DNA from: Deltaproteobacteria bacterium
Lineage (GTDB): Bacteria > Desulfobacterota > Binatia > UBA12015
DNA length: 64,000 nt
Direction of reading: 5' to 3'
NCBI GenBank assembly: GCA_029262355.1
Contig: JAJCZO010000297.1
Coordinates: 21,055-85,054, forward strand
Position numbers and translations under genes: made by a program. The notes under the pieces are model-generated. The model saw only the letters and a program-made list of their open reading frames with translations, was not told where the DNA came from and did not search any database. Of this stretch, positions 1-41,140 are shown piece after piece; within the stretch, counting starts at the first letter, position 1; the number at the start of each line of letters is the position of its first letter.

Positions 1-746
1 AGCGCGTCGGCCGTGGCGGCCTTCGCGGCCTCGCCGGATTCGGCGATGTGCATCTGCCAGTTCATGGGGAAGTCGAACTTGGCGGGGTCGGCGCCGAGCG
101 CGGCCATCTCCTTTTGCGCGACCAGGACGTTTTCCTTCAGCTCATCCATGGTCATTAGCGTCGGGGTGACCATGAGCTGGAGGCCTTTCTCGGCCGCGAT
201 CTTGAAGCTCTCCGGGCTGATCGCTGCCATGTAGACGGGCGGATGCGGCCTTTGGACCGGCTTCGGAATCAGGTTCACGTTCTCGACGTGGTAGTGCTTC
301 CCGGCATAGCTGAAGTCGTCCGACTGCCACGCGCCCAGAACGATGTCGAGCGACTCGCGGAACAGCTCGCGGCTGTGGGCCTGCTTGTCGCCCATTCCCA
401 GCATGCGGAACTCGCGCGGCTGGTATCCGCGTCCCACACCGAAGTCGAGGCGACCGTTCGAGATGACGTCGACCATCGCGTAATATTCCGCGATGCGCAG
501 TGGGTTATCGAAGGGCAGAATGCTCACGGCGATGCCGATTCGCATTCTCGTGGTGTGCATCGCGACGGCAGCGGCAGCCACTTGAGGCGATGGCATCGTC
601 CCGTAGGTGCTGCCGTGGTGCTCCGCGAGCCACACGGTATCGAAGCCGAGTTCGTCTGCGAGGCTGATTTGTTCGAGCATTTCCTCCCAGGCACGGCGGA
701 AATCGCCGTCGCGGGCCTCGAGGACGTAGAAGACTCCGAATTTCAT
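1..746 (-). CDS. LLM class F420-dependent oxidoreductase (luciferase-like monooxygenase fold); 3' end of gene lies beyond window start
   Basis: Minus-strand translation from ATG at 746..744 reads MKFGVFYVLEARDGDFRRAWEEMLEQISLADELGFDTVWLAEHHGSTYGTMPSPQVAAAAVAMHTTRMRIGIAVSILPFDNPLRIAEYYAMVDVISNGRLDFGVGRGYQPREF..., a luciferase-like TIM-barrel N-terminus. An AGGAGAGA ribosome-binding site sits just upstream on the minus strand. The frame stays open to the window edge, so it is absent from the ORF track. Confidence 0.7.
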   Translation of the reverse strand, partial: MKFGVFYVLEARDGDFRRAWEEMLEQISLADELGFDTVWLAEHHGSTYGTMPSPQVAAAAVAMHTTRMRIGIAVSILPFDNPLRIAEYYAMVDVISNGRLDFGVGRGYQPREFRMLGMGDKQAHSRELFRESLDIVLGAWQSDDFSYAGKHYHVENVNLIPKPVQRPHPPVYMAAISPESFKIAAEKGLQLMVTPTLMTMDELKENVLVAQKEMAALGADPAKFDFPMNWQMHIAESGEAAKAATADA

Positions 747-875
747 TTTGATCTCTCCTGTGGTGGGTTGCCGTCGGACTCCGCAGGAACCATGCCAGCT
801 CGACGCCGGGGCACAGGGCTTGCAGGTTGCGAGGTCTATCGACAAGCCTGAGCTTGGATCACGGGGGACGAATAC

Positions 876-1298
876 ATGGGCGCACTCTCACTAGAAGACA
901 AGCAGACGATCCAGGAGCTCCTGGCGCGCTCGGCATGGGCGTACGACGAGGCTCGTCTCGACGTGATGGAGGCCTGCTTTCACGCGGACGCTCAGATGCG
1001 TCTGTGCATTGCAGGCGGAGACATCGTCGGTCCCTACGACGGACGCGTCGAGATCTTGGATCTGATCCGTGGTTCGATCGAGTCGCAGAGCGATCAGCGC
1101 CGTCACGTGATCTCGAACGTGTTCTTCGAGTCGGCAGACGGTGACACGGCGGTCGTGTTGTCGACCCTCACCCTGATCGCCACCGCCAACGGCGCGAGCT
1201 CGGTTCTGTCGGCCGGGCTGTATCGCGACACGGTGGCACGTGATGGCGAGGGGTGGCGCTTTCGCGAGCGCTTCCTGTCCCTCGATCGGCCGTACTGA
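876..1298 (+). CDS. NTF2/SnoaL-like small protein (nuclear transport factor 2 fold)
   Basis: ORF-track 140-aa protein with SnoaL-like composition (SAWAYDEARLDVMEACFHADAQM...). It is compact, non-R/P-rich and sits cleanly between the flanking genes. Confidence 0.55.
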   Translation: MGALSLEDKQTIQELLARSAWAYDEARLDVMEACFHADAQMRLCIAGGDIVGPYDGRVEILDLIRGSIESQSDQRRHVISNVFFESADGDTAVVLSTLTLIATANGASSVLSAGLYRDTVARDGEGWRFRERFLSLDRPY

Positions 1299-1314
1299 GA
1301 AGCGAGCATCCTCA

Positions 1315-2862
1315 GTGAACGTCGGAACCATTCCCGCGAAGCACGCCCGCCTCAACCCCGATCGGGAGGCCGTCATCGATGCGACGACGGGTCGCCGCGT
1401 GACGTTCGGTGAACTCGAGAGCCGCGTCCGTCGGCTCGGACACGGGTTGCGCAGCGCTCTCGGGCTCGAACGGGGAGACCGGGTCGCCGTTCTCTCGAAG
1501 AACAGCGTCGAGTTCTTGGAAGTGTACTTCGCCGCAGGGCGCCGGGGGCTCGTCTCGCAGCCGCTCAACTGGCGCCTCGGCGTCGCCGAGATGGCGCGTA
1601 TCCTCGAGGACGGCGCGCCCCGCGCGATCGTGTTCTCGAGCGAGTTCGAGGCCGAGGCGACCGAGCTGCGCGCGCTCGTCGAGATCGACCACTGGCTGGA
1701 ATACGGCGGCGGCGAGAGAACGTACGAGTCGCTCGTCGATAGCGGCGGCGAATCCGATGAGTCGATCGACGCTGGCGACGCCGACCCGTTCTTCATTCTC
1801 TACACGGGCGGAACCACCGGCGAGTCGAAGGGCGCCCTGCACACGCACGGCAGCGCGACGATGGGCATGATGAACCAGACGGTCGCCGAGCGCATCGTGC
1901 CCGATGATGTCTACATGCTCACGGGACAGATGTTCCACATCCCCATGTTGCTCGCGATGAACTATCTTGCACATGGGTGCCCGCTGGTCTTGATGAACTT
2001 CGAGGCACGACTCGCACTCGATTTGATTCAACGCGAGCGGGTTTCTGCCTTCCTCGGCATCACGACCATGTTGAACTGGATGATGGCCGAGCCGGGGTTC
2101 GACCGCTTTGATCTGTCGAGCCTGCGGAACATCCAGTACGGCGGCGGGCCGATGCCGCCGAACGTCGTCCAGGCCGCGTTTGAATCATTCCCCTGCGAGC
2201 TGATCCAGGGGTACGGCCAAACGGAAGGTGCGACGATGACCTTCCTGTCGCAGGAAGACCACCGCGATGCGCTTCGTGGCGTGCAACCGGAGCGCCTGCG
2301 TTCGTGCGGCCGCGAGGGCTTCGTCACGGAGATCCGGTTGGCGGACCCCGATGGCCGGCCGACGCCCCGCGATGGCAAGACGACCGGCGAGATCCTCGTG
2401 CGCTCGCCAGCCAACATGCGCGAGTACTGGCGGAAGCCGGAGCTCACGGCCGGGACGTTGCGCGACGGTTGGATGTGGACCGGCGACATCGCCACCTGGG
2501 ACGCTGAGAGCTACGTCTACATCGTGGACCGCGCGAAGGACATGATCATCACGGGGGGGGAGAACGTGTACTCCGTGCAGGTCGAGGCGGCGATCCACAA
2601 ACACCCGGCCGTGCTCGAGGCGGCCGTCATCGGAGTGCCCGACGATGAGTGGGGCGAGTCGGTGAAGGCCGTCGTGGTGTTGAAGCCCGGCCAGGTGGCA
2701 ACGGAGAAGGACATCATCGAGACGGCCCGTACCCATCTTGCGTCGTATCAGAAGCCGCGCTCGGTCGACTTCGTCGACGCGCTCCCGAAGGCTCCCACCG
2801 GCAAGATCTTGAAGCGCGAGCTCCGCGATCCGTATTGGAAGGATCGGGAACGGAGCGTATGA
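1315..2862 (+). CDS. AMP-dependent acyl-CoA synthetase/ligase (FadD-like)
   Basis: Contains the AMP-binding signature ILYTGGTTGESKGALHTHGS, later YGQTEG, and a C-terminal PKAPTGKILKRELR motif. The start is trimmed to GTG 1315 (VNVGTIPAKHARLNPDREAV), which removes a 58-nt overlap with the upstream gene. The ORF-track start at 1240 is an alternative. Confidence 0.85.
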   Translation: MNVGTIPAKHARLNPDREAVIDATTGRRVTFGELESRVRRLGHGLRSALGLERGDRVAVLSKNSVEFLEVYFAAGRRGLVSQPLNWRLGVAEMARILEDGAPRAIVFSSEFEAEATELRALVEIDHWLEYGGGERTYESLVDSGGESDESIDAGDADPFFILYTGGTTGESKGALHTHGSATMGMMNQTVAERIVPDDVYMLTGQMFHIPMLLAMNYLAHGCPLVLMNFEARLALDLIQRERVSAFLGITTMLNWMMAEPGFDRFDLSSLRNIQYGGGPMPPNVVQAAFESFPCELIQGYGQTEGATMTFLSQEDHRDALRGVQPERLRSCGREGFVTEIRLADPDGRPTPRDGKTTGEILVRSPANMREYWRKPELTAGTLRDGWMWTGDIATWDAESYVYIVDRAKDMIITGGENVYSVQVEAAIHKHPAVLEAAVIGVPDDEWGESVKAVVVLKPGQVATEKDIIETARTHLASYQKPRSVDFVDALPKAPTGKILKRELRDPYWKDRERSV

Positions 2863-3311
2863 GCCGGCTTACGCCGGAAATGTTGGCCCACGTCGGTCGT
2901 TCGCGGACACCGGTGATGGAGCTCGCCACGAGTCGCGACATCCGCAAGTACTCCGTCGCGACGCGACAGCGATTGTCGAAGTATCTCGAAGGAATCGAGG
3001 CGCCTCCTCTCTTCTACGTGGCGCTTTTCTGGGACGTCGTGGCGCTCGACCGCATGACGCCGGACGGCGTCACCGTCGATCCGCTTCTGCCGGAGCTTCC
3101 GTTTCCGCGCGCAATGGCGGGCGGCATCAAGACGCAGTACTTCCGGCCGATACGCAGTGGTGACTATCTCGTGGCGCAGCGGACGCTCACCGACTTGTAT
3201 GAGAAAGAGGGCAAGTCGGGACCGCTGTGCTTCTACGAGGTGACCCTCGACGTGAAGGATGATTACGGTGCTCCGGTGCTGGTGGAGAGAACGACGCGCA
3301 TCTTGCGTTGA
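2859..3311 (+). CDS. MaoC-like hot-dog fold protein, non-catalytic partner subunit (ChsH1/HadA-like)
   Basis: ATG 2859 overlaps the ligase stop (ATGA). This is a 150-aa hot-dog-fold-like sequence with no hydratase N-x-x-H motif. It is immediately followed, again with an ATGA overlap, by a catalytic MaoC paralogue. Confidence 0.65.
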   Translation: MSRLTPEMLAHVGRSRTPVMELATSRDIRKYSVATRQRLSKYLEGIEAPPLFYVALFWDVVALDRMTPDGVTVDPLLPELPFPRAMAGGIKTQYFRPIRSGDYLVAQRTLTDLYEKEGKSGPLCFYEVTLDVKDDYGAPVLVERTTRILR

Positions 3312-3733
3312 GGCAGGACATCATGGCGAGAATCGAGACGATACAGGTGGGCGACGGTCTGCCGGCAGAGGATCATACGCCCACGATCTTGGACCTTTTC
3401 TTCTACAACGCCGCAATCTGGAACGGACACCGGATCCATTTCGACGAGAAGTACACGACGCAAGAGGAAGGCTATCGGGGGATCGTGATCCAGGGGCCTT
3501 TGCAGGGTGACTGGATGAGCCAGTGCGTGATGGGTTGGCTCGGCGAGGAGGGCACGCTGGTCGAGTTCGAGTACAGCAATCGGTCTGCCGCCTACCTCGG
3601 CGATACGTTGCATGTAGGAGGGAGGGTGACGGCCGTGGACACCTCCTCGGGCGAGGTCTCGGTCGATCTCTTCGTTCGCAACACGGCGGGTGACGTCATC
3701 GCGCCGGGCGCGGCGCGGGTTCGCGTCGGATGA
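3308..3733 (+). CDS. MaoC-like (R)-specific enoyl-CoA hydratase/dehydratase catalytic subunit (ChsH2/HadB-like)
   Basis: Carries a hydratase-2-type motif NAAIWNGHRIHFDEKY (N/H/H/D) inside a hot-dog fold. It is translationally coupled to the preceding gene. Confidence 0.75.
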   Translation: MRQDIMARIETIQVGDGLPAEDHTPTILDLFFYNAAIWNGHRIHFDEKYTTQEEGYRGIVIQGPLQGDWMSQCVMGWLGEEGTLVEFEYSNRSAAYLGDTLHVGGRVTAVDTSSGEVSVDLFVRNTAGDVIAPGAARVRVG

Positions 3734-3737
3734 TCCG

Positions 3738-4916
3738 ATGAGCCGCTCCTCGAGCCTCCGCGGTGCCGTCGCGATCGTCGGTATCGGGGATACGGAAGTG
3801 GGCAAGCTGCCCGGCCGCGGCGCTACCGAGCTCACCATCGATGCCGGAGCGCGCGCGTTGCGTGACGCGAGCATCGACAAGAGTGCGATCGACGGACTGA
3901 TCACGTCCAACTCGATGGTCGATCCGCACATGTATCACGCGGAGATGGTTGCAGAGGCCATGCAGATCTTCCCGCGATACTGCATGACGCTTGCGGCGGG
4001 TGGTGCGACGAGTTTCGCGGCCATTCACCACGCCGCTTCGGCGATCGCGACCGGGCTGTGCGAAACCGTGCTGATCAGCTCGGCCGACAACCTGCGCACG
4101 GGACTCACGCGTGAGCAGGCGATGGTCCAGCAGTCTTCTACCGGCCATCCGCAGTTTGAGGCCCCGTACGGGGCCCCGGTGCCGGTGTCGTATGCGTTCA
4201 TCGCTCAGGCACACATGCACCAGTTCGGCACCACGCCGGAGCAGCTTGCTGCCGTCGCCGTCACTACGCGCCGGCACGCCTCGCTGAACCCGAACGCAGA
4301 GAAGCGCGGGCTGATCGACATCGGCGACGTGCTCGAGTCGCGCCTCATCGCGGATCCGCTTCACCTTCTCGACTGTTCGCTCGTGTCCGACGGAGGATCT
4401 GCCGTCGTCGTGACGAGCGCGGAGCGCGCCGTCGACCACCCGGAGCGACCGGTGTATCTGCTGGGCGCAGGCGAAGGCCACTCACACGAGCACATCTCGG
4501 CCGCGAAGAGCCTGGTGAGCTCGGCCGCGGCGGAGTCGGGAGAGCGCGCGTACGCGATGGCGGGCCTGACTCCGAAGGACGTCGACTTTGCCGAGCTCTA
4601 CGATTGTTTCACGCCGGTCGTCCTCATCGAGCTCGAGGATCTGGGCTTTTGTGCCAAGGGAGAAGGCGGTCCCTACGTGGAAGCCGGGCACACCGCGCTT
4701 GGGGGGCGGTTGCCGACGAACACGCATGGCGGACTCCTCTCGCACACGCACCCGGGCAACCCGGGGTCCATGTTCGCGCTGACCGAGGCCGTGATGCAGC
4801 TTCGCGGCGACGCTGGCGCGCGGCAGGTCGAGGGCGCCGAGGTCGGGCTGGTGCACGCACAGGGAGGAATCCTCTCCAGCCACTGCACGTTGCTCTTGGG
4901 GCGGGACGCATCATGA
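3738..4916 (+). CDS. Thiolase-fold protein of the Ltp2/SCP-x-like (retro-aldolase) type
   Basis: Shows thiolase-superfamily architecture (AIVGIGDTEVGKL... N-terminus and a glycine-rich C-terminus HTHPGNPGSMFALTEAVMQLRG). The start ATG 3738 lies 4 nt after the upstream stop. It is followed, with an ATGA overlap, by a DUF35 protein, and that pairing is characteristic of Ltp2-type aldolases. Confidence 0.75.
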   Translation: MSRSSSLRGAVAIVGIGDTEVGKLPGRGATELTIDAGARALRDASIDKSAIDGLITSNSMVDPHMYHAEMVAEAMQIFPRYCMTLAAGGATSFAAIHHAASAIATGLCETVLISSADNLRTGLTREQAMVQQSSTGHPQFEAPYGAPVPVSYAFIAQAHMHQFGTTPEQLAAVAVTTRRHASLNPNAEKRGLIDIGDVLESRLIADPLHLLDCSLVSDGGSAVVVTSAERAVDHPERPVYLLGAGEGHSHEHISAAKSLVSSAAAESGERAYAMAGLTPKDVDFAELYDCFTPVVLIELEDLGFCAKGEGGPYVEAGHTALGGRLPTNTHGGLLSHTHPGNPGSMFALTEAVMQLRGDAGARQVEGAEVGLVHAQGGILSSHCTLLLGRDAS

Positions 4917-5323
4917 GCGCGGCCTCGGGAAAGCCCGCGCCGCGGCCAACCGTCGAGACGCAACCGTACTGGGACGGCTGCCGGAGCGGCGAACTGCGTC
5001 TGCAGCGGTGCGCCGCCTGTGAGCACGTCCAGTTTCCGCCGAGGCGCTTCTGCGCGAGCTGCCTCACTGCGGACCTACGTTGGGAGTCCGCGTCGGGCCG
5101 AGGCCGTATTCGAACGTTCAGCGTCGTGCGCCACCCCATCTCGCTCGCGTTTGCCGCCGAGGTTCCGTACGTGGTCGCGTTGGTCGAGCTGGACGAAGGG
5201 CCGACGATCATGGCCGGCATCCGCGGCTGTCAGATCGAGGACGTCGAAATCGGGCTCGCCGTCGAGGTCGAGTTCGAACAACGAAGCGACGAGATCTACC
5301 TGCCGTACTTCCATCCGTGCTGA
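4913..5323 (+). CDS. DUF35 OB-fold / zinc-ribbon protein (ChsH2 C-terminal-like, stand-alone)
   Basis: Carries a rubredoxin-like Cys4 motif (LQRCAACEHVQFPPRRFCASC) followed by an OB-fold region. The start is coupled to the thiolase stop. Confidence 0.7.
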   Translation: MSAASGKPAPRPTVETQPYWDGCRSGELRLQRCAACEHVQFPPRRFCASCLTADLRWESASGRGRIRTFSVVRHPISLAFAAEVPYVVALVELDEGPTIMAGIRGCQIEDVEIGLAVEVEFEQRSDEIYLPYFHPC

Positions 5324-5540
5324 GTGGGGCGGCGCCGGCCCCGAGACGAAAGCCGTCGACTGCGCAGGAAGGGCGGGCTGGTGCCGTCGGCGTTGGTCGA
5401 GCAGGAACACGGAGCCTGGCGAGGCACTCTCCGATTCGTTGCGGGGGATTCACCGGCAATCGCTGCGGCGTGCCGTTTCGTCGATCGTCGACGCCTGCGG
5501 CGGTCCTTGTAATTTGCTGGTGCATACGGGACCACTTCTC

Positions 5541-6566
5541 ATGCGCGCAGCCGAGATTCACGAGTATGGGCCGCCCGACGTCTTCCGCTTGACGACGGAC
5601 CGTCCCGATCCCACCGTTGGTCCGGGGCAAGTCTTGGTTCACACTCGAGCGACCTCGGTGAACCCAATCGACTGTCGTATGCGGGGCGGCTACGGCCGGG
5701 TGCTCTTTGCGATGATGCGCGGGGGCAACGAGTTTCCGGCGGTGCTCGGTCGCGACATCGCGGGCGAGGTCGTCGCCGTCGGGCAGGGCGCGTCACGCTT
5801 CTCGATCGGCGATCGCGTGTTCGGCGCACCGAACACTGGGCTGCAGGGAACCTACGCTGAATTCATGGCAGTCGCTGAAGGCGAGCTTGCCGTCATCCCT
5901 GACACACTCGGCTTCGCCGAGGCGGCCTCCCTTGCGTACGTTGCGGCGACCAGCTGGGCTGCTCTCGTGACTCACGGGGGGCTCTCCGCCGAGAATGCCG
6001 CGGGGCAACGCGTTCTTCTCGTTGCAGGGGCGGGCGGTATCGGTTCGTTCACGATCCAATGGCTGAAGGCCTGGGGGTGCCATGTCGGCGCCGTAGCGAG
6101 TGCGAGGAATGCGGGGCTCGTACGAGGGCTCGGTGCCGACGAAGTGGTCGACTATGGGAGCGCCGACTTCGCCGAAGTGCTCCGTGACTACGATGTCGTC
6201 TACGACAATCTGGGCACTGACGAGGGGCGTGCGGTGCGAACCTTGAAGACCGACGGCACCGCGCGGTTCGTCACCATCGTGCACCCGTTTCTCTCGACGG
6301 TGGACGAACTCGGGATGGAGAAGGGCATGGGGGCGGCGAACGAGGAGCAGGCGCGCCGCCGGGAGCAGTACCCGGCGCTGGGGGGGTACGCGTGGTCGGT
6401 TGCGCAGCCCACCGGCGATGGCATGGCCGAGATCGCCCGCCTCGCCGCCGCTGGCAAGATTCGACCGCAGATCACCGACACCTATCCGCTCGACCGGGTT
6501 GCCGACGCGCACACCCGACTCGAGGAAGGCCACGTCGCAGGCAAGCTCGTCCTAGCCGTGAGTTGA
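5541..6566 (+). CDS. MDR-family zinc-binding alcohol dehydrogenase / NADPH:quinone oxidoreductase-like
   Basis: Has the GroES-like N-terminus (MRAAEIHEYGPPDVFRLTTDRPDPTVGPGQVLV) and a Rossmann motif LVAGAGGIGSFTIQ. The ORF-track N-terminal extension from 5019 was discarded because it is R/S-rich and shows no similarity. Confidence 0.75.
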   Translation: MRAAEIHEYGPPDVFRLTTDRPDPTVGPGQVLVHTRATSVNPIDCRMRGGYGRVLFAMMRGGNEFPAVLGRDIAGEVVAVGQGASRFSIGDRVFGAPNTGLQGTYAEFMAVAEGELAVIPDTLGFAEAASLAYVAATSWAALVTHGGLSAENAAGQRVLLVAGAGGIGSFTIQWLKAWGCHVGAVASARNAGLVRGLGADEVVDYGSADFAEVLRDYDVVYDNLGTDEGRAVRTLKTDGTARFVTIVHPFLSTVDELGMEKGMGAANEEQARRREQYPALGGYAWSVAQPTGDGMAEIARLAAAGKIRPQITDTYPLDRVADAHTRLEEGHVAGKLVLAVS

Positions 6567-6665: not shown

Positions 6666-8189
6666 ATGAACGCCGCAAAGCAGCGATTTGTGTGCGGGCT
6701 GTTGGCTGTAGTTCTCGCGCTGCCGACCGCCGCAGAAACGGTGGATGGCGCCGAGTCCGAGGCGAGCCGGCCCAACATCTTGCTCATCACGATAGATACC
6801 CAGCGAGCGGATTCCTTCGGGATCTACGGGAATGAGGGCAACCACACGCCCAACATCGATCGTCTCGCCGCGGGCGGCGTCGTGTTCGAGCGGGCGACGG
6901 CTCCCGTCGGAACGACCTTTCCTTCCCACGCCACTCTGCTCACCGGTCTTTATCCTCGCGCGCACGGTGTGCGCTACAACGGCGATGCGCTCGAAGAGGA
7001 GATCGTCACCCTTGCAGAGAGGCTCCTTCCGGCCGGGTACGAGACGATGGCGTTCGTGACGTACGGCTCGATGGTGAGTCGGGGCGGTCTGGGCCAGGGT
7101 TTCATCCGGACGAGCCATGAGAAGGATGGGCCCGCGGCGCACTCGACCAGTCCGAAACGCATCACCTCCATGGCTCGGGGGCTTCTGAAGCGCAAGCGCC
7201 CGTCGCCGTTCTTCATGTGGGTTCACTATTACCATCCGCATTCGCCCTACGATCTGACGCCGTACTCGAAGGAGAAGTTGGAAGGATACGAAGGGGCGTT
7301 CGCGGACGGGGCGACGGTGAAGGAGTTTTACACTCTACAGAACAAGGGAAAGCTGACCGACGACGATCGGAAGGCACTGCGCACGCTCTATGATGGCGAG
7401 ACACGCGAGGCCGATCGTACGGTCGGCTCGATCCTCGAGGCGTTGGAGGAGGCTGGGCACGCGAAGAACACGATCGTCGTCGTCACCTCGGACCATGGCG
7501 AGTTGCTCGGCGAGCATGACGACGTCGGCCACGGCCCGCGCTTGTGGGACCCGGTGCTTCGCGTCCCGCTCGTGATCTACGATCCGCGCGCGCCGCAGCC
7601 GCGCAGAGTCGCGTCGCGCGTGGGTCTCGTCGACGTATCGCCGACCCTCTTGGAGATGGTTGGACTCGAGGTTCCAGCTGGGATCGATGGCCGAAGCCTC
7701 GCGCCCGCGTTGCGCGGCGACGACCTCGACGATCGGCCGTATTACAGCGAGGTCAGCGCGGTTTCCCCGAGTCACAAGGCGCGGAAGCCGGGCGAGAAGA
7801 AGGGCCAAGGGCCGGATCAGACGAGGGCGCAGAAGAAGGACCAAAAGCCGGGCCAGAAGAAGGCGCTGAAGAAGGGCCAGAAGAAGGCGGCCAAGGTGCC
7901 GCGCAAAGAGCCACGCACGCATGAGTGGGATGAGACCGCGGTTGCCGTTCTCCTCGGAGACCAGAAGCTGATCGTGCAGAACGGTCAGGCTCGGCGGTAC
8001 GATCTGGCCAAGGACCCGGCGGAGCTCACGCCGATCCCCGACACCGCCGACGATCCCAGCGCCGCAGAGTTGATGAAGCTCGCGCAAGAGTACGGCAAGC
8101 GGAAGCAGCGAACGGGAGGACAGGTCGACCCGAAGGACCTCTCGCCGAAGGTCGAGGCCGAACTCCGGTCGCTCGGGTATCTTCAGTAG
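6666..8189 (+). CDS. Secreted sulfatase-like alkaline-phosphatase-superfamily enzyme lacking the FGly motif (Thr in place of Cys; T-F-P-S-H)
   Basis: Has a signal peptide and a sulfatase N-terminal metal-binding block (NILLITIDTQRADSFGIYG). The active-site motif reads TTFPSHATLLTG instead of C-x-P-x-R. It has a Lys/Gln-rich low-complexity insert and ends LRSLGYLQ, like its paralogue at 37603..38994. Confidence 0.8.
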   Translation: MNAAKQRFVCGLLAVVLALPTAAETVDGAESEASRPNILLITIDTQRADSFGIYGNEGNHTPNIDRLAAGGVVFERATAPVGTTFPSHATLLTGLYPRAHGVRYNGDALEEEIVTLAERLLPAGYETMAFVTYGSMVSRGGLGQGFIRTSHEKDGPAAHSTSPKRITSMARGLLKRKRPSPFFMWVHYYHPHSPYDLTPYSKEKLEGYEGAFADGATVKEFYTLQNKGKLTDDDRKALRTLYDGETREADRTVGSILEALEEAGHAKNTIVVVTSDHGELLGEHDDVGHGPRLWDPVLRVPLVIYDPRAPQPRRVASRVGLVDVSPTLLEMVGLEVPAGIDGRSLAPALRGDDLDDRPYYSEVSAVSPSHKARKPGEKKGQGPDQTRAQKKDQKPGQKKALKKGQKKAAKVPRKEPRTHEWDETAVAVLLGDQKLIVQNGQARRYDLAKDPAELTPIPDTADDPSAAELMKLAQEYGKRKQRTGGQVDPKDLSPKVEAELRSLGYLQ

Positions 8190-12633: not shown

Positions 12634-14340
12634 TCAGATGGTGGGGGTGACGGTGACTGGGCTCTCGGCCCAACCGTAGCGCACGGCCTTTGCCTCGACC
12701 GTCGTACCGATTCGGGTAGAGAATTTCTCGGAGTAGACCTGCCACGGGCCGGCGTTGCCCGTGCCGTCGATGAGGCGGTAGCCGATCGAAGCGCCCTCGG
12801 ATGGGGACGACATCTCGATCATCACGTGGCCGTCGGTGGTCGGGTTCACACGCACGACAGGGCGGGCAGTGCCGGGTTGCTCACCCCCGGGCCAGTACGT
12901 TGCGATCATCTCCTCTTCCGGCATGTCGCTGAGATCGGGGCGCTCGGCCATCCACGTGTCGAGGGCCGTCCACATGCGGTCGAGCGTGGCGCGGTGCTGG
13001 GGGTCCTCTGCCAGGTTCGCGACCTCGAACGGGTCCTCCCAGGTGTCGTAGAGCTGGTTGGCGGGGCGCGGCTCGAACCACAGCCGCTGAGTCGGATCGA
13101 GCTTGCCGTCCTCGAAAAGCCGTCGGAGTTCGCGCATCATGGGTTGGTTGTTGCGGTAGGCGAGGTCGAGCGCGGCCGGGGTGCCCGGCGTGCCGGTGCG
13201 GATGTACTTGTAACGTTCGTCGCGTACGGCGCGTTCTTGGTCGGGCCACTCGTCGATCCGATCGCGCGAGGCGTAGATGTATTGGCGGGGCGGATCAGCG
13301 CTCATCCCGGCGAAGACCCTACCGTCGCTCCAGGCGGGAGTCTCGACTCCCGCAAGCGCGAGGATCGTCGCCGAGAGGTCGACGAAGCTCACGAGCCGCT
13401 CATCGACCGAGCCCGGCTCTACTCCTGCGGGGCGGAAACGCTCGGGCCAGCGAATGATCATCGGCACTCTGATGCCCGAGTCGAAGAGAGACCGCTTCCC
13501 GCGGGGCAGTCCGTCGCCGTGGTCGGTCGTCCAGATGACGATGGTCGAGCCGGCGAGGCCGTCCCGCTCGAGGGCGTCGAGTGTCGCGCCGACCTCTTCG
13601 TCCATGACGTGGATGTTCTCGTAGTGGCGCGCCATGTCGGCCCGCACCGTCGGCGTGTCGGGGAAATACGGGGGAATCTCGATGTCGGCGGGATTCATCA
13701 CGGGCTCGCGGCCCAGAGCCGCCCATGCTCGGCCCAAGACCGAGACGGCGTGAGAGACGCTTCGGGGCCAGGTGAGCGGGAAGACGCCGCTCTCGTGCGT
13801 CACGTTGTAGTTGATCTGGCCGTAGAACGGCTTGTCCCGCGGTGTGCCCGTCCAGTCGGCGCCGGACCATGTCTCGCGATCCCAGATGGTGAACGGACCG
13901 CTGCCGGGGAAGACGTGGCTGAACTGGTAGTCCAGCTTCGCCGTCGTGAAGGTGAAGTACCCGGCCTTGCGCAGCAGCTCGGGGAACGCCTTCACCTCCG
14001 GGGGCGGAACGGCCCGAAAGCTCTGCAGCCCGTACGTCCGCATGTGCTGACCACCAATCGCGGTTTGTCGCACGCCGGTGATCAGCCCCGCTCGGCTGGG
14101 CGCGCAGACGCCGGCAGTCGTGAAGGTGTTTGGAAAGCGAACGCCCTCGGTCGCGAGCCGATCGAGGTTGGGCGTGATCGCAACCTCGTCGCCGAAAGCG
14201 CCGATACGCGCGCTCAGGTCCTCGGCGGTCAGCAGGAGGATGTTCGGCCGTTGTTGGGGAAGCCGCCCGCCCGAGGGCCCTTGCTGGCACGCCGACAACA
14301 GCAGGGCTGCGGCAAGGGCGGCACAGACTCTCGAGTGCAT
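12634..14340 (-). CDS. Sulfatase (formylglycine-dependent, C-A-P-S-R), lipoprotein
   Basis: Canonical motif TAGVCAPSRAGLITG with a lipobox signal peptide MHSRVCAALAAALLLSAC. The start is trimmed to ATG 14340. It carries a C-terminal beta-sandwich extension. Confidence 0.85.
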   Translation of the reverse strand: MHSRVCAALAAALLLSACQQGPSGGRLPQQRPNILLLTAEDLSARIGAFGDEVAITPNLDRLATEGVRFPNTFTTAGVCAPSRAGLITGVRQTAIGGQHMRTYGLQSFRAVPPPEVKAFPELLRKAGYFTFTTAKLDYQFSHVFPGSGPFTIWDRETWSGADWTGTPRDKPFYGQINYNVTHESGVFPLTWPRSVSHAVSVLGRAWAALGREPVMNPADIEIPPYFPDTPTVRADMARHYENIHVMDEEVGATLDALERDGLAGSTIVIWTTDHGDGLPRGKRSLFDSGIRVPMIIRWPERFRPAGVEPGSVDERLVSFVDLSATILALAGVETPAWSDGRVFAGMSADPPRQYIYASRDRIDEWPDQERAVRDERYKYIRTGTPGTPAALDLAYRNNQPMMRELRRLFEDGKLDPTQRLWFEPRPANQLYDTWEDPFEVANLAEDPQHRATLDRMWTALDTWMAERPDLSDMPEEEMIATYWPGGEQPGTARPVVRVNPTTDGHVMIEMSSPSEGASIGYRLIDGTGNAGPWQVYSEKFSTRIGTTVEAKAVRYGWAESPVTVTPTI

Positions 14341-14389
14341 TACGGGCCTATACCACCGTTTCGAACTCGACCGGCAAGCACTCGGGAGC

Positions 14390-15403
14390 TCAGAGATCGG
14401 GGTGTGCCGTCTTCCAACACGACGCGGGCAGAGTGGCGAGTCCACGGCGCAGCGCCTGGGTCAGGATCTCGTGGGCGCGCTCGCCGGCGTGCTTGTTGCC
14501 TTGGGACACCCAGAGCGATCGCGGGTCTTCGCCCAGGAACAGGTCGAGAGAGGGGGCCACTCCGAGTCCGCGCTCCTTGGCGGCACCGGCTACGCGCTCG
14601 TACACCTGGTCGTAGGGGTGGAAGTGATGGAGCGAATCTAGCTGGGTCTGCAGGAGTACGAGGACGCATGCGTCGTACTGACGGCCCAGCGTCGCAAGGC
14701 GGTCGAGGTGCCCCGTGTAGGCCTGCCACGCCGCCTCATTGTGGAAGTAGTTGTCGAACATCTCGGCTGGGTAGGTGCCGGGTGCCCGGCGAATCCACGG
14801 CAGCTCTTGTAGGCCCATCTGAACGGCCCGGCTCAAGGCGCTCGCCGAGTGAACCGGTTTGGGGCGCATCCCGCGAGATGCCGACGAGCGGTAGAGGTCA
14901 CGGAGGCGGATGTCGGTCGGGGCGAAGCCGTACACGATGAGATCGGGCTCGTAGGCCAGCCCCACGGTCTCCAACCGCTTCATCGAGTGCTCGATGTTTG
15001 CGCCGGCGATCGCGACGTTCACGACTTCGATGCGCGGGGCTCGCTCCTCGGAGAGCTCGTCCTCGATACGCGCCGCGTAGGTTCGCTCCTCGGCCACCCC
15101 CGAGCCCATCGCGTTCGAACCACCGGTGGCGACGATCCGGAACACGTCATCGGGCTTCGGGGTGTCGTACTCGCGGTCGCGAATGCCCTGTGAGTTGGTC
15201 TCGAAGAGCTGGCCCGCGAAGATCCCACGCTGATCCTTGCGAACCAGATCGGCGAGGCCCTTCAGCCGTCTCAGTTCTTTGGAATGCACTCGCGGCGTAG
15301 GAGAGGGCGGGGGCGGTGCCTCGAGCCAAAAGCGCAGCCCAATCTCAGCGGCGCCAGCGAGCAGTCCGAGAGTGATCGCAATCGTGAGGATAGGCCGAAG
15401 CAC
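14390..15403 (-). CDS. SGNH/GDSL-like hydrolase, N-terminally membrane-anchored (tentative)
   Basis: Has an N-terminal TM helix, then VATGGSNAMGSG (a GDS-like block I) and a C-terminal His-containing block. It is the first gene of the minus-strand operon. Confidence 0.5.
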   Translation of the reverse strand: MLRPILTIAITLGLLAGAAEIGLRFWLEAPPPPSPTPRVHSKELRRLKGLADLVRKDQRGIFAGQLFETNSQGIRDREYDTPKPDDVFRIVATGGSNAMGSGVAEERTYAARIEDELSEERAPRIEVVNVAIAGANIEHSMKRLETVGLAYEPDLIVYGFAPTDIRLRDLYRSSASRGMRPKPVHSASALSRAVQMGLQELPWIRRAPGTYPAEMFDNYFHNEAAWQAYTGHLDRLATLGRQYDACVLVLLQTQLDSLHHFHPYDQVYERVAGAAKERGLGVAPSLDLFLGEDPRSLWVSQGNKHAGERAHEILTQALRRGLATLPASCWKTAHPDL

Positions 15404-16017: not shown

Positions 16018-16137
16018 TCCACCCTACCCGCTGGTTTGGCCCGATGCGCGTTCGCACGGCCGAGCCGTCCACGTGACCACATCGGACGGGTCCGTGTGGT
16101 CCTCATGCGGGCGAACCGCATCCAGGGGTTGGTTGGA

Positions 16138-17517
16138 ATGAGTACGTTTGGAAGAAGACCGGGAATCGCCGCGTGCGTGTTCATCGCATGGGGCTGTAGC
16201 GCGTCGGCCGATCGCTACGCGTCGGTTCGGACCGAGGCATTCGGTCCAGCGGACGACCCTGCTCCCCGCGCTGTGACGGAGCCCGGGGTGCCGCTGGCGA
16301 ACCACGTTTGGGGGGACGCGACCGAGCTGCTGCTCGAATCGGTTCAGCGCGTCGCGAAGGCGCGCAACCCGACGCTCGCCGCGGCGCGTGCGTCGTGGCA
16401 GGCAGCGGTCGAGCGCTATCCCCAGGTAACCGCCTTCAAGGATCCGACTTTTGGTTACGCGCTGGCGCCGGGCTCGATCGACTCAGACGAGAGCATCTAT
16501 GGACAGAAGATCGAGGTCGCCCAGCGGATCCCCTGGCCGGGCAAGCTCGCTTTGCGCGGCGAGGCCGCGTTGGACGACGCACAGGCGGCGGGCGATGGAT
16601 TCGAGAGCGCGCGCCAACACCTGCAGCATGCGGTCACCGAAGCGTTCTTCGCGCTCTGGCTCACCCACCGATCGATCGAGATCAACCGCACCAACCAGAA
16701 CCTGCTTGCAGAGTTCCAAGAGGTTGCGGAAGGTCGCTACGGCGCCGGCCTCGCCTCGAAGAGCGACGCTCTTCAGGCCGAGGTCGAGCATCAGCACCTC
16801 ATTCATCGGGGCATCGCGCTCGAGCGCGACCGCAAGGTTGCCAAGGCGCGTCTCAATACCCTGCTGAAGCTGCCCCCGACGCATCCCCTGCCGCCGCCGC
16901 CGAAACGCGTTCCGAAGCCGAGAGGCATCGCGGCCTTGCCACGGCTGGAGAAGGTCGCTCTCGAGGGTCGCCCCGAGCTTCAGGCGCTCGAGCATTCGGT
17001 GGGGGCGCGCTTGGCCGACGTCGACCTCGCGCACCGTGAGTACTTTCCCGATTTCGCGCTGAATGCGGGGTACAACAGCCTCTGGGAAGTGGTCGACAAG
17101 CGTACGGTCGTTGGCATCGCGATCGATGTTCCGTTGCAACTGGGTCGTCGGCAAGCCGCCGTGAACGAAGCAGAGGCAGCGCACCGCCGGGCACAGGCCC
17201 GGCTCGAGGAAGGCCGGTCCGAGACTCTGCTGGAGGTGAGCGAGGCGTACGATCAGCTCGTCGAGACGGAGCATGTCGTTCACTTGTACGCGACATCTAT
17301 CCTTCCGGTGGCGCGGGAGAGCCGCGACACGGCCCGTGTCGGCTACGAGGCGGGATCCAACGACTTCTTGACGCTCCTTCAGACCGAGAAGTCGCTCTAC
17401 CTGGCGGAGCTGACGTATCAGGAGGCACTCGCCGCGTATCACCAGGGCCGGGCGCGTCTCGAGTTTGCGGTGGGCCGCTCGCTCGACGCACTGGATGGAC
17501 CGGAGGTCATGCCATGA
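16138..17517 (+). CDS. TolC-family outer-membrane efflux protein (CusC/CzcC-like)
   Basis: Shows the outer-membrane-factor coiled-coil repeat structure and a signal peptide from ATG 16138. Its stop overlaps the MFP start (ATGA). Confidence 0.8.
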   Translation: MSTFGRRPGIAACVFIAWGCSASADRYASVRTEAFGPADDPAPRAVTEPGVPLANHVWGDATELLLESVQRVAKARNPTLAAARASWQAAVERYPQVTAFKDPTFGYALAPGSIDSDESIYGQKIEVAQRIPWPGKLALRGEAALDDAQAAGDGFESARQHLQHAVTEAFFALWLTHRSIEINRTNQNLLAEFQEVAEGRYGAGLASKSDALQAEVEHQHLIHRGIALERDRKVAKARLNTLLKLPPTHPLPPPPKRVPKPRGIAALPRLEKVALEGRPELQALEHSVGARLADVDLAHREYFPDFALNAGYNSLWEVVDKRTVVGIAIDVPLQLGRRQAAVNEAEAAHRRAQARLEEGRSETLLEVSEAYDQLVETEHVVHLYATSILPVARESRDTARVGYEAGSNDFLTLLQTEKSLYLAELTYQEALAAYHQGRARLEFAVGRSLDALDGPEVMP

Positions 17518-18926
17518 AGCTGCTCTGCTGCGGGCTGGTCGCGGCGGCGTCGGCCGTCTTCGTCTCTTGCTCGGGACCTTCGGGTCCGGCCGAGGCGGGT
17601 CTCGTTGCGAAGGCTGGGCGGTTCCGGATCGAGGCGCGCTTCGATCCCGATCCTCCACAGAAGGGCTCGAACGTCGTTCGGCTGAAGGTCATGGACGATG
17701 GAGGCCTGCCCGCTGACGACGTTTCGGTACGCGGGTCCGCCGTCATGCCCGCCATGGGCGCCATGGCGGAGATGCGCGCGGGGGGCGAGGCGACGTCGAT
17801 GGGAGAGGGGCGTTTTCGGCTCGACGTCGATCTGTCGATGTCGGGTTCGTGGCCGCTCACCGTGTCGGTCACGGGCAGCGATGGGAAGACGGGCTCGGTT
17901 GGCTTCAACTACAAGACCGGGGTTCCCGTTCGCGTGGCGGGGAGTCGGTCGGCCGGGTCGTCGGAGGAAGCCGGAGTGATCGAGATCGACGCGCGTCAGC
18001 GTCAGTTGATCGGAGTGAAGACCGCGCCGGTCAGGCTCGGCCCGGCCGAGAAGTCGATTCGCGCCGTCGGGCGCGTGGCCTATGACGAGACCGGTCTGGC
18101 GGACGTGACGCTGAAGTTCCAGGGATGGATCGGCGAGGTCTTCGTGAACACGACGGGCGCGCCGGTCACGAAGGGGGAGGAGCTCTTCACCGTATATTCT
18201 CCAGAGCTGCTCTCGGCGCAGGAAGAGTTCCTCGAGAGCGCACGACGTGGGTCCAAACTGCTGTCGAGCGCGCGTCGCCGGCTGTCGCTCTGGAACCTCA
18301 CCAACGCTCAGATCGACGAGCTCTCCGTACGCGGAACACCACTGGTCTACGTCCCGATCCAATCCGCAGCGAGTGGGATCGTCGTGGAGAAGCATGTCGT
18401 CGACGGGAGCGCCGTCGCGCCCGGCCAGCTTCTCTACCGAATCGCAGATGTCTCCCAGGTGTGGATCGAAGCCGACGTCTACGAGTCGGATCTTCCCCTC
18501 GTGAAGGTGGGGGCCGCGGCCAGGATCTCCCTCACCTACCTGCCAGGAGAAACCTTCGAGGGAGTCGTCGACTACGTCTATCCGTATCTGGACTCGCCGA
18601 CCCGAACGGGTCGCGTGCGAATCGTCGTGCCCAATGAAACGGGGTCCCTCAAGCCGGGGATGTACGCGGACGTCGTTCTGCTCGCGGCCCTTGGCGATCA
18701 GCTCGTCGTGCCGGAAGCGGCGATCATTCGTTCGGGCAAGACGGACCTCGTATTCGTCGATCTCGGAGAGGGCCGGCTTGCGCCGCGTCGGGTTGAGCTC
18801 GGACGTCGGACGACGGATGGCTACGTGGTCCGCAGCGGTCTGGAGGCGGGCGAGACCGTCGTGACTTCTGGCAACTTCCTGATCGCGGCCGAGAGCAAGC
18901 TCAAGGCGGGCATCAGCCAGTGGTAG
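17514..18926 (+). CDS. RND efflux membrane fusion protein (CusB/CzcB-like) with Met-rich N-terminal extra domain
   Basis: Has HlyD/MFP barrel-sandwich, beta-barrel and MP domains (IEIDARQRQLIGVKTAPV...). The first ~130 aa are Met-rich (MPAMGAMAEMRAGGEATSMGEGRFRL). Confidence 0.85.
   Translation: MKLLCCGLVAAASAVFVSCSGPSGPAEAGLVAKAGRFRIEARFDPDPPQKGSNVVRLKVMDDGGLPADDVSVRGSAVMPAMGAMAEMRAGGEATSMGEGRFRLDVDLSMSGSWPLTVSVTGSDGKTGSVGFNYKTGVPVRVAGSRSAGSSEEAGVIEIDARQRQLIGVKTAPVRLGPAEKSIRAVGRVAYDETGLADVTLKFQGWIGEVFVNTTGAPVTKGEELFTVYSPELLSAQEEFLESARRGSKLLSSARRRLSLWNLTNAQIDELSVRGTPLVYVPIQSAASGIVVEKHVVDGSAVAPGQLLYRIADVSQVWIEADVYESDLPLVKVGAAARISLTYLPGETFEGVVDYVYPYLDSPTRTGRVRIVVPNETGSLKPGMYADVVLLAALGDQLVVPEAAIIRSGKTDLVFVDLGEGRLAPRRVELGRRTTDGYVVRSGLEAGETVVTSGNFLIAAESKLKAGISQW

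Positions 18927-28712: not shown

Positions 28713-28729
<17 letters not shown>
27710..28729 (-). CDS. meaB: Methylmalonyl-CoA mutase-associated GTPase MeaB/ArgK
   Basis: P-loop [12 protein letters not shown], with G-protein switch and base-specificity motifs (NKAD). It overlaps the 3' end of the mutase gene. Confidence 0.85.
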
Positions 28730-30890
<2,161 letters not shown>

Positions 30891-30969
30891 GAACGAGTAG
30901 GATGGTGGTCGGGCTCGTCGCTTGCAAATCTGCGGAAGGGGCGGCTCCTCGCCCGAATTGGAGGAATGG

Positions 30970-35318: not shown

Positions 35319-35569
35319 CGCGGCGTGCCCGAACGCGCCCAGCCGAAACGGGCGCTTCTTGGGTAGCAGGGTGCGCCCCTCACGGGAAGCAAGTGGCAGG
35401 AGCCTCCGCCGTCCATTGCGTACCGAGCAGCGGCGCACTAGAAGCTGCATATTCCGTCTCCGGGTTGGAACTCGCTGCGTCGCCGGCTGGGATGTCGCGC
35501 GGGGTTCGTCTCCGGCGGTCTCGTCGTCATGCGGATTCTTTTCGAGCTCGTGTCCCCGGGTGGGGTGGG

Positions 35570-40838: not shown

Positions 40839-40914
40839 TGGTCGAGCGTGCCCGAAACCTGCGAACGGTGCACGCCGCTTCCGCAGGCAGGGGCGCAACG
40901 ATCGTCTCCGCGCC

Positions 40915-41139: not shown

Positions 41140-41140
41140 G

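Follow-up and report, generated by a model that had tools for sequence, protein, structure and literature searches.

The retro-aldolases of the thiolase fold characterised to date come from steroid catabolism, namely Ltp2 and Sal and, by genetics, AedK and Ltp3/4. In Ltp2, Tyr294 acts as the base and Tyr344 as the acid, while mutagenesis of Sal showed Tyr302 and Cys304 to be essential, the tyrosine serving as base and the cysteine as acid; a glycine in the position of the nucleophile rules out thiolysis, and TbSLP, which carries the motif YDCF, has been proposed to be an aldolase as well (PMC12329534). AedK/AedL constitute a thiolase-fold aldol-lyase system of actinobacterial oestrogen degradation (PMC8913865), and Ltp3-Ltp4 act on C24-branched sterol side chains (PMC6678751). 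In all characterised steroid systems the DUF35 partner is fused to a MaoC domain, i.e. in ChsH2 of Mycobacterium tuberculosis, ORF40/ChsH2 of Comamonas testosteroni (TA441), Shy and AedL. Where DUF35 is a free protein, it is typically that of an archaeal thiolase complex, BbsA or PhlB. The zinc site of Shy is of the C3H1 type (PMC12329534), and the canonical catalytic dyad of MaoC hydratases is Asp-x4-His (PMC11321319). A different type of hot-dog hydratase is represented by the Ich-type enzymes. They act on itaconyl-CoA as isomerases and add water to mesaconyl-C4-CoA, giving the tertiary alcohol citramalyl-CoA, which is then cleaved by a lyase (PMC12290011). Here, we describe a cassette in a window of 64 kb (the whole stretch of DNA analysed, G+C content about 65%) from contig JAJCZO010000297.1 of an uncultured Deltaproteobacteria bacterium (Binatia in GTDB), which combines an AMP-forming ligase, two single hot-dog proteins (hotA and hotB), a thiolase-fold protein and a stand-alone DUF35 protein. 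Neither the literature mentioning DUF35 (steroid aldolases, archaeal thiolase complexes, PhlABC and unrelated topics) nor a search for the gene combination yielded a paper on this cassette.

Judged from the protein sequences, the cassette is likely to provide the activation of a carboxylic acid, its hydration and a non-thiolytic, retro-aldol release of acetyl-CoA. A sequence-only reading of the window had recognised the same core, a ligase, a hot-dog hydratase and a thiolase-fold retro-aldolase with its DUF35 protein, and this is supported by a glycine (Gly89) at the nucleophile position, by the tyrosine Tyr288, by the modelled fold of hotB, which resembles that of ChsH1, and by the presence of DUF35 at all 77 loci. 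These and the following locus statistics refer to 81 distinct loci, the denominators being the loci with enough sequence. The genes are as follows.

876 to 1298, + strand: SnoaL_4 (NTF2-like) gene, 140 amino acids (aa); Pfam SnoaL_4 1.4e-18, weak Ring_hydroxyl_B
1315 (GTG) to 2862, + strand: AMP-forming ligase, 515 aa; Pfam AMP-binding 5e-77 plus AMP-binding_C
2859 (ATG) to 3311, + strand: hotA, 150 aa; PF13452 FAS1_DH_region (N-terminal type of MaoC hot-dog) 4e-13
3323 (ATG) to 3733, + strand: hotB, 136 aa; Htd2/MaoC-type hot-dog, Pfam score under the cut-off
3738 (ATG) to 4916, + strand: thiolase-fold gene, 392 aa; Thiolase_C_1 3e-62 and Thiolase_N; predicted retro-aldolase
4913 (ATG) to 5323, + strand: DUF35 gene, 136 aa; zf-ChsH2 2e-12 plus OB_ChsH2_C 3e-21

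The order of the five genes from the ligase to DUF35 on one strand (+, 1315 to 5323), as well as the ATGA overlaps of ligase and hotA at 2859 and of the thiolase-fold gene and DUF35 at 4913, were confirmed from the sequence and the list of open reading frames (ORFs). The description of all five genes as translationally coupled is only loosely true, since the two remaining junctions are gaps of 11 nt (hotA to hotB) and 4 nt (hotB to the thiolase-fold gene). The SnoaL_4 gene ends 16 nt before the ligase. All gene lengths are the same as in the orthologues of relatives and therefore support the chosen starts. None of the six cassette proteins reached the cut-off of any NCBIfam model, and the hotB orthologues carry precomputed annotations as members of the Htd2 hot-dog family.

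Active site of the thiolase-fold protein and its predicted DUF35 partner

Among the structures in the PDB, the thiolase-fold protein is most similar to 4u4e (6e-92, 312 bits), followed by TcLtp2 (6ok1; 8e-63, 216 bits) and CtSal (9myr; 1e-56, 196 bits). True thiolases rank below Ltp2 and Sal, with 7yvy at 1e-48, the archaeal 6esq at 2e-43 and BbsB at 6e-39, and are followed by SCP2 thiolases and TbSLP. In the alignments, Gly89 corresponds to the nucleophilic cysteine of the thiolases 7yvy and 6esq and to the glycine of Ltp2 and Sal, while Tyr288-Asp-Cys290-Phe corresponds to HDAF/HDCF in the thiolases, to YDHF in Ltp2 and to YDCY in Sal. At the position of His338, the thiolases carry their GHP/GHA histidine, Ltp2 has Tyr344 and Sal has Gln352. 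Gly89, YDCF and His338 are invariant in ten family members with identities of 69-88% to the window protein. Hence, two of the three residues of the thiolase triad are kept (Cys290 and His338), whereas the nucleophile is replaced by Gly89, which makes the acyl-enzyme mechanism of thiolases impossible. The replacement of the nucleophilic cysteine and that of the HDCF histidine by Tyr288 favour an aldolase. Neither an intact triad nor a clustering with SCP-x thiolases was found, Ltp2 and Sal being more similar than the true thiolases.

Although the thiolase-fold protein had been called Ltp2-type, this does not hold for the catalytic residues. In common with Ltp2, it shows the SCP2-type thiolase fold with loss of the nucleophilic cysteine, but of Y294-D-H296-F and Tyr344 only the first tyrosine is conserved as Tyr288, the motif being YDCF instead of YDHF and His338 standing in place of Tyr344. 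With Sal it shares the Y-D-C-[YF] dyad and the glycine at the nucleophile site, while the glutamine at the position of Ltp2-Tyr344 is again replaced by His338. The full residue set of a true thiolase (SCP2-type, archaeal or BbsB) is not present, as only Cys290 and His338 are kept. In its predicted catalytic residues, the protein is nearer to Sal and TbSLP than to the Ltp2 type, and the putative Sal/SLP-type Tyr/Cys dyad together with the retained thiolase histidine forms a combination unlike the characterised types compared, i.e. Ltp2, Sal and true thiolases.

The public names of group members (P0003, P0008, P0113 and many JGI entries) read 'acetyl-CoA acetyltransferase' or 'thiolase family protein', and the closest NCBIfam model is likewise an acetyl-CoA acetyltransferase, with 394 bits against a cut-off of 421. 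Since the nucleophilic cysteine is a glycine, this annotation as thiolase is almost certainly wrong across the group.

The DUF35 protein comprises an OB fold and a zinc ribbon of the type C33-x2-C36-x10-C47-x2-C50 (C4, as in ChsH2), and its best matches in the PDB are the DUF35 domains of Shy (9myr_B, 3e-23) and ChsH2 (6ok1_B, 7e-20). The genes of the thiolase-fold protein and DUF35 are adjacent in all 77 loci with enough sequence, and both Pfam domains of DUF35 score above the cut-off; DUF35 is predicted to be an obligate partner of the aldolase, with which it may form the complex that had been proposed. The architecture differs from both steroid types. In the Ltp2 type, the MaoC subunit ChsH2 carries DUF35 as its C-terminal domain, while DUF35 is a separate gene of 136 aa in the window; in the Sal type, the partner Shy carries a C3H1 DUF35 fused to one canonical MaoC domain, while a C4 ribbon and two free hot-dogs are found here. 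Accordingly, the comparison of the stand-alone DUF35 with "proteobacterial systems" is incorrect, since in the characterised ones, Shy and ORF40/ChsH2, DUF35 is fused to MaoC.

The hot-dog pair

The statement that only the second hot-dog carries the N/H/H/D motif proved to be right. In hotB, the motif reads W33-N34-G-H36-R-I-H39-F-D41, in which N34-x-H36-x-x-H39-x-D41 is invariant in the family, whereas the hotA family shows no invariant histidine. As in the heteromeric MaoC hydratases ChsH1-ChsH2 and HadAB, two hot-dogs are therefore present, only one of them with the putative catalytic site. The canonical Asp-x4-His dyad of these enzymes, however, is replaced by N34-G-H-R-I-H39, with Asn34 at the position of the catalytic aspartate and His39 kept.

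Searches against solved structures gave the same ranking for single sequences and for family profiles. The hotA family profile matches the N-terminal half of PaIch, the itaconyl-CoA hydratase of Pseudomonas aeruginosa (8huc/8khg, residues 10-138), with 2e-9, followed by HadA/Rv0504c, while the hotB family profile matches the C-terminal half of PaIch with 3e-15, followed by HadB. For ChsH1/ChsH2, an E of about 0.5 was obtained with the single sequence, and they were absent from the profile matches of hotA and hotB at E below 0.1, i.e. no significant similarity to the ChsH1/ChsH2 sequence family was found. hotB and PaIch share the signature F-x-Y-x-A-x3-N-x-H-R-I-H-x-D followed by EGYPG-V-GPL (EGYPGLV..GPL), and relatives of hotB are annotated by JGI as '3-methylfumaryl-CoA hydratase'. 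The pair thus shows both halves of the Ich type, a MaoC_dehydrat_N-like half and an N-x-H-R-I-H-x-D half, though not as one double-hot-dog polypeptide combined with a CitE/HpcH lyase acting on a C5 dicarboxylyl-CoA.

The AlphaFold2 (AF2) model of hotB reached a predicted local distance difference test score (pLDDT) of 87. In a Foldseek comparison, the ChsH1 chain of 4w78/4wnb, PhaJ and HadB ranked first with template modelling (TM) scores of 0.82-0.88; PaIch ranked lower, yet with the highest identity (28-31%). The comparison with ChsH1/ChsH2 made by the sequence-only reading is thus valid for the fold, hotB being modelled like ChsH1, and for the architecture of one catalytic and one structural hot-dog, as also in HadAB, but not for the sequence. 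By descent, hotA and hotB would represent a split Ich-type (itaconyl-/mesaconyl-C4-CoA) hydratase, with hotA as putative non-catalytic subunit and counterpart of the N-terminal half of the double-hot-dog hydratase.

Conserved unit, distribution and neighbourhood

Comparison with the closest relatives, the Binatia-like contigs L004, L007, L041, L086 and L087, revealed a single nucleotide homology block at about 806 to 5327 of the window, which opens with the SnoaL_4 gene and closes at the stop of DUF35. Since SnoaL_4 falls inside this block, the conserved cassette comprises six genes, and the five-gene module of the sequence-only reading has to be extended by the gene at 876 to 1298. Synteny with L087 is resumed at a pyridoxal phosphate (PLP)-decarboxylase gene at position 9670.

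In L004, L007, L086 and L087 the SnoaL_4 protein is syntenic and 70-85% identical. Its similarity to the small subunits of oxygenases that hydroxylate rings is no more than faint, and possible roles are those of an isomerase, a (de)hydratase or a helper resembling an oxygenase small subunit. It is unlikely to serve generally as the beta subunit of the Rieske oxygenase found at 18 loci, because the window and many loci contain SnoaL_4 but no Rieske gene.

The thiolase-fold protein has matches with E values below 1e-30 in more than 7,499 database clusters, the best 120 being all at least 69% identical, and its nearest named relatives come from metagenome-assembled genomes of Candidatus Binatia and 'Deltaproteobacteria'. 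When one genome of each GTDB species was scanned for relatives carrying the peptide YDCFTPVV or ELEDLGFC, 520 places encoding such a relative were obtained. The best 80 of the 520 share 65-82% identity with the window protein, a value that rises to 89% for the closest metagenomic relatives. These 80 span Binatia, marine Halieaceae, other Pseudomonadales/Cellvibrionales, Steroidobacteraceae, Lysobacterales, Sphingomonadales, Gemmatimonadota and Bacillaceae (Neobacillus, Niallia, Alteribacillus and Alkalihalobacillus), the proteobacterial ones belonging to the Gamma- and Alphaproteobacteria. Seongchinamella unica GH4-78, Altererythrobacter sp. GH1-8, Alteribacillus persepolensis DSM 21632 and Neobacillus niacini are carriers available in culture. 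In metagenomes the orthologue group is abundant. While DUF35 follows directly downstream of the aldolase gene throughout (77/77), hotA plus hotB directly precede it in 57 of 76 loci. An orthologous ligase (at least 60% identical) is located upstream in 29 of 72 loci and a SnoaL_4 gene in 25 of 71, and the complete six-gene order was found in 16 of 71. This recurrence across loci shows that the gene arrangement is not due to chance. A tblastn search for plasmid copies gave only paralogues with at most 50% identity, and the paralogue locus of Polaromonas JS666, with the order DUF35-thiolase amid acyl-CoA dehydrogenases, is a different system.

In Bacillaceae, loci with an aldolase-DUF35 pair of 66-69% identity lack hotA and hotB (L057, L045, L047, L018, L031 and L050), and the order there, as in Neobacillus niacini (L057, 4520-12937), is CoA-transferase III, luciferase-like (LLM) oxidoreductase, SnoaL_2, aldolase, DUF35 and ligases. 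A SnoaL-type gene is present also in these loci without hot-dogs, the NTF2-like protein being a more constant partner than the hydratase in Bacillaceae genomes.

The cassette of the window is flanked by the following features.

3 to 887, - strand: LLM oxidoreductase, divergent and truncated at the window start; Bac_luciferase 2e-59
5483 to 5505, + strand: hairpin resembling a terminator, within the 217-nt gap that separates DUF35 from the following gene; may mark the operon end, weak
5541 to 6566: medium-chain dehydrogenase/reductase (MDR), downstream, behind the 217-nt gap
6666 to 8189, + strand: sulfatase, downstream of the MDR gene

The hairpin has to be read with caution, as scans for terminators and promoters were not above chance (2 terminator-like sites found in the region, 3.1 expected). 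The MDR reductase and the sulfatase were rejected as operon members due to the 217-nt gap and their missing conservation beside the module; in relatives, an MDR gene at the 3' side is represented only by a 99-residue fragment in L087 alone. The metallo-beta-lactamase-fold gene that follows is not conserved beside the module either.

The nearest NCBIfam models of the divergent LLM are F420- or flavin mononucleotide (FMN)-dependent LLMs, all below the cut-off. It is 54-58% identical to LLMs beside the Bacillaceae aldolase-DUF35 pair (L018, L045, L047, L048 and L057), and only 35-38% identical to the LLM gene that the nearest Binatia relatives add beside the cassette. The similarity to the Bacillaceae neighbours suggests that an LLM and the aldolase are functionally linked irrespective of the hot-dog hydratase, and the LLM is tentatively regarded as an accessory of the cassette. 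In total, three LLM genes are located in the window, at 3-887 (-), 22636-23652 (-) and 59049-59987 (+).

Recurrent neighbours were determined by de novo clustering of the flanking ORFs of the 81 loci. The commonest was a short-chain dehydrogenase/reductase (SDR, 51/81), followed by TetR (26/81), acyl-CoA dehydrogenase (22/81) and two clusters of luciferase-like oxidoreductases (21/81 and 11/81). A Rieske alpha subunit right after DUF35, a pyrroloquinoline quinone (PQQ)/cytochrome-c alcohol dehydrogenase and an alpha/beta-hydrolase were each observed in 18 of 81 loci, enoyl-CoA hydratase in 15, TonB receptor in 14, the F420-biosynthesis proteins CofC and CofD in 10 and 9, Amidohydrolase_2 in 9 and glutathione S-transferase (GST) in 8. 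A major facilitator superfamily (MFS) transporter was also among the neighbours. The setting of the relatives' loci is catabolic, though variable. The flanking steroid-core genes (kshA, kstD, hsaC) or acyl-CoA dehydrogenase pairs that a steroid-related module might be expected to have were not found: scanning of the whole 64-kb window gave no KshA/KstD/HsaC-type, FadE28/29-type or acyl-CoA dehydrogenase genes, and steroid-core genes were absent among the recurrent neighbour clusters of the 81 loci scanned with Pfam. Unlike Ltp2, the cassette is thus not located inside a steroid cluster (ChsE1/E2, Ksh, Kst, Hsa).

Several lineage-specific settings were observed. In L086 (2050-5873), L087 (1752-5589) and L004 (1-2155) a divergent AcoABC-like cluster adjoins the cassette. 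This cluster comprises both subunits (alpha and beta) of a thiamine pyrophosphate (TPP)-dependent E1, a lipoyl-E2 that includes an alpha/beta-hydrolase domain, and a further SnoaL_4. Directly upstream of the cassette, L004-L006 carry TetR-RPE65 (carotenoid/stilbene cleavage oxygenase)-SDR. In eight loci of Steroidobacteraceae- and Lysobacterales-type proteobacteria (L001, L003, L011, L017, L024, L037, L042 and L072), the module lies beside CofC, CofD, CofH, a PNPOx-like flavin/deazaflavin protein and 6-phosphogluconate dehydrogenase.

Elsewhere in the window, a methylmalonyl-CoA mutase with MeaB (27713-31067, -) as well as a succinyl-CoA-synthetase-beta-like ATP-grasp gene (42055-43257, -) and an HpcH/CitE-type lyase domain (46223-47902, +) were found, of which the mutase/MeaB and the lyase represent further C-C lyase/mutase functions on CoA esters. 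As the lyase domain begins at residue 238, the real start of this ORF is probably later. At least four sulfatase-family genes are present in the 64 kb (6666-8189, +; 12637-14445, -; 37606-38994, -; 38994-41510, -), one of them fused to a long N-terminal region (839 aa). A three-gene resistance-nodulation-division (RND) efflux operon (16036-22105, +), comprising an outer-membrane factor, a CusB/HlyD_D23-type adaptor + YtkA and an AcrB/CusA-type pump, looks like a metal-efflux system. Two ORFs at 33243-35756 (-, 838 aa, weak YfhO match) and 35180-37612 (+, 811 aa, no Pfam match) show an antiparallel overlap of about 580 nt.

Proposed mechanism, alternative explanations and comparison with known systems

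Based on these assignments, a three-step mechanism is proposed. As expected from its family, the ligase would convert a carboxylic acid into the acyl-CoA; since no acyl-CoA dehydrogenase is adjacent, the acid is probably 2,3-unsaturated already, or the dehydrogenase is encoded elsewhere. According to fold, motif and nearest relatives, hotA and hotB would then act as heteromeric MaoC-type hydratase leading to the 3-hydroxyacyl-CoA, with the active site contributed by hotB and hotA as substrate-accommodating partner. Finally, the thiolase-fold protein, held by DUF35, would cut between C2 and C3 to give acetyl-CoA and an aldehyde or ketone; the aligned residues suggest Tyr288 as base on the 3-hydroxyl group and Cys290 as acid on the enolate, as in Sal.

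Some observations speak against this mechanism or limit it. hotB has Asn34 instead of the canonical catalytic aspartate, so that its activity is argued by analogy to PaIch, and the retained His338 and Cys290 leave room for unforeseen chemistry of the aldolase, for which the AF2 model (10-sequence alignment) reached only a pLDDT of 37. Furthermore, the Bacillaceae orthologues of the aldolase-DUF35 pair occur without hotA and hotB, which means that the pair is not obligately combined with the hydratase. In the window, the operon is adjoined by neither a dehydrogenase nor a transporter or regulator, and the guesses at the substrate rest on variable, lineage-specific neighbours.

Among the possible substrates, we tentatively prefer a non-steroid, 3-substituted 2-enoyl-CoA, derived for example from isoprenoid/apocarotenoid or alicyclic acetic acids, which would be hydrated to a tertiary alcohol and cleaved to a ketone and acetyl-CoA. 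This weakly supported choice can be explained by the Ich-type hydratase, whose product citramalyl-CoA is a tertiary alcohol, and by neighbours which could process a ketone (LLM, alpha/beta-hydrolases, the AcoABC-like complex and, in one lineage, RPE65). For the shortening of abscisic acid by two carbons to the methyl ketone dehydrovomifoliol, a literature search gave a metabolite paper and no genes. Aryl-propenoyl substrates of the cinnamate or ferulate type are nearly as likely, if on the whole doubtful. The cassette would then be a non-crotonase counterpart of feruloyl-CoA synthetase and hydratase/lyase, converting a cinnamate-type acid via benzylic hydration to a benzaldehyde and acetyl-CoA. 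Rieske oxygenase, GST, SnoaL-type and RPE65 families are known from aromatic and lignin-fragment catabolism, and genes of these families recur near the module. The Sal-type Tyr/Cys dyad, moreover, works on a secondary alcohol and gives an aldehyde, and the best solved relatives of the ligase, 8weu/8wev ('fatty-acyl-CoA synthase', 'feruloyl-CoA synthetase'; 1e-93), point in the same direction; yet FadD13, which comes next, is nearly as close, and the specificity of a ligase is unreadable at such similarity. In addition, no aldehyde dehydrogenase was among the recurrent neighbour clusters scanned, and the type of hydratase suggests 3-substituted enoyl-CoAs. A steroid side chain, which the sequence-only reading had put forward beside isoprenoid-like and aryl ones, is the least supported substrate class and appears improbable. 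A dedicated steroid side-chain module, i.e. a true orthologue of ChsH1-ChsH2-Ltp2 or Shy-Sal releasing propionyl- or acetyl-CoA from the side chain of a sterol or bile acid, would be in line with Ltp2 and Sal as closest characterised relatives of the thiolase-fold protein, with a DUF35 protein closest to the domains of Shy and ChsH2, with the model of hotB closest to ChsH1 and with Steroidobacteraceae among the carriers. It is contradicted by the lack of KshA, KstD, HsaC and FadE28/29-type genes in the 64 kb and the scanned neighbour clusters of the 81 loci, by the histidine in place of both Tyr344 of Ltp2 and Gln352 of Sal, by the C4 instead of C3H1 zinc ribbon, by DUF35 without MaoC fusion and by hot-dogs which are Ich-type by sequence, while 4u4e (312 bits) is much closer than Ltp2 (216 bits).

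Two further explanations concern the type of reaction. In the reading that corresponds to the public annotation, an ordinary beta-oxidation thiolase pair with (R)-hydratases, the thiolase fold, the kept acid/base Cys290 and GHP-type His338 and the nearest NCBIfam model, 394 bits compared to a cut-off of 421, would be accounted for, and true thiolases with DUF35 partners are known (BbsAB, archaeal thiolase). However, the nucleophilic cysteine is an invariant Gly89 in the family, the HDCF histidine is a tyrosine and no 3-hydroxyacyl-CoA dehydrogenase is present in the conserved block; judging by Gly89, a true thiolase would be excluded unless an unprecedented nucleophile is assumed, and we give this reading the smallest chance of all. 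Very improbable, too, is the synthetic direction, in which the proteins would form a CoA-dependent chain-building complex independent of acyl carrier protein, like the archaeal fatty-acid synthase, or an aldol-condensing variant thereof. In Sulfolobus, DUF35 scaffolds a fatty-acid synthase complex of ketothiolase, MaoC, SDR and MDR (bioRxiv 10.1101/2024.07.05.601840), and the same four protein types (ketothiolase/DUF35, MaoC dehydratase, SDR and MDR enoyl reductase) co-occur here, with an MDR gene following in the window (5541-6566) and an SDR neighbour in 51/81 loci. A Claisen condensation, though, requires the nucleophilic cysteine that is absent, the MDR gene stands behind the 217-nt gap and is reduced to a fragment of at most 99 residues in L087 and absent in other relatives, and the CoA ligase together with TetR, TonB receptors and acyl-CoA dehydrogenases indicates catabolism.

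If the catabolic, retro-aldol mechanism is true, the thiolase fold would have a third catalytic solution, Gly / Tyr-Asp-Cys / retained His, and such an active-site arrangement beyond Ltp2 and Sal would be of interest for mechanism and for biocatalytic C-C chemistry. In the case of 3-substituted 2-enoyl-CoAs, the removal of C2 units would represent an alternative pathway to the carboxylase-dependent Atu/Liu route, with LLM oxygenases, esterases or an Aco-like TPP complex handling the ketone. The orthologue group of the window protein is distributed over several phyla outside steroid clusters, so that, given the correctness of the proposed chemistry, many environmental bacteria would split a class of acids aldolytically.

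Compared to the known systems, the closest solved relative is 4u4e, deposited as 'Thiolase', which aligns end to end and has the glycine at the nucleophile site, Y-D-x-F and the T-H-P-G histidine in common with the window protein; because of its YDSF motif (serine for Cys290) it is regarded as a sister subfamily. Ltp2 (8e-63) is the best characterised relative. ChsH1-ChsH2-Ltp2 of Mycobacterium tuberculosis and Thermomonospora curvata (6ok1, 4w78) resemble the cassette in the hydratase of a catalytic and a non-catalytic hot-dog and in an aldolase without nucleophilic cysteine, which has the catalytic tyrosine of YDxF and needs a DUF35 partner. They differ in YDHF versus YDCF, in the acid Tyr344 versus His338, in DUF35 as C-terminus of ChsH2 versus a separate gene, in the catalytic aspartate versus the asparagine of hotB, and in the ChsE1/E2 dehydrogenases and the steroid cluster, none of which is found here. 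Shy-Sal of Comamonas testosteroni (9myr; PMC12329534, PMC11321319) shares the glycine at the nucleophile site and the Tyr-Asp-Cys motif, and among solved structures the cassette DUF35 matches that of Shy best (3e-23). In contrast to the cassette, Sal has Gln352 instead of the histidine, with a similarity (196 bits) below that of Ltp2 or 4u4e, and Shy combines C3H1 zinc with one canonical Asp/His MaoC domain fused to DUF35, compared to C4, two Ich-type hot-dogs and a free DUF35.

With respect to the hydratase, both halves of PaIch (8khg, 8huc) align with hotA (2e-9) and hotB (3e-15), including the asparagine for the canonical aspartate, and together with (S)-citramalyl-CoA lyase a comparable sequence of hydration to a 3-hydroxyacyl-CoA and release of acetyl-CoA and a carbonyl compound results. 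PaIch, however, is one polypeptide and works with a CitE/HpcH-type lyase instead of two genes with a thiolase-fold protein and DUF35, and its pathway processes a C5 dicarboxylate via a CoA transferase, whereas an AMP-forming ligase of the fatty-acid/feruloyl type is found here. AedK/AedL and Ltp3-Ltp4 demonstrate thiolase-fold aldol-lyases beyond the C17 propionyl step, for example in the removal of branches, but are located in steroid clusters, and AedL is a MaoC-DUF35 fusion; TbSLP, which is exempt from the steroid context, has the identical YDCF (PMC12329534) and no DUF35 partner. None of these shows the context of SnoaL_4, ligase and split Ich-type hydratase. Taken together, the general type, in which a MaoC hydratase precedes a retro-aldolase that has the thiolase fold and depends on DUF35, is known, and the cassette differs from the known systems in its combination of active-site residues, in a DUF35 that is free and an Ich-type hydratase that is split, in the SnoaL_4 partner and in its non-steroid distribution over multiple phyla.

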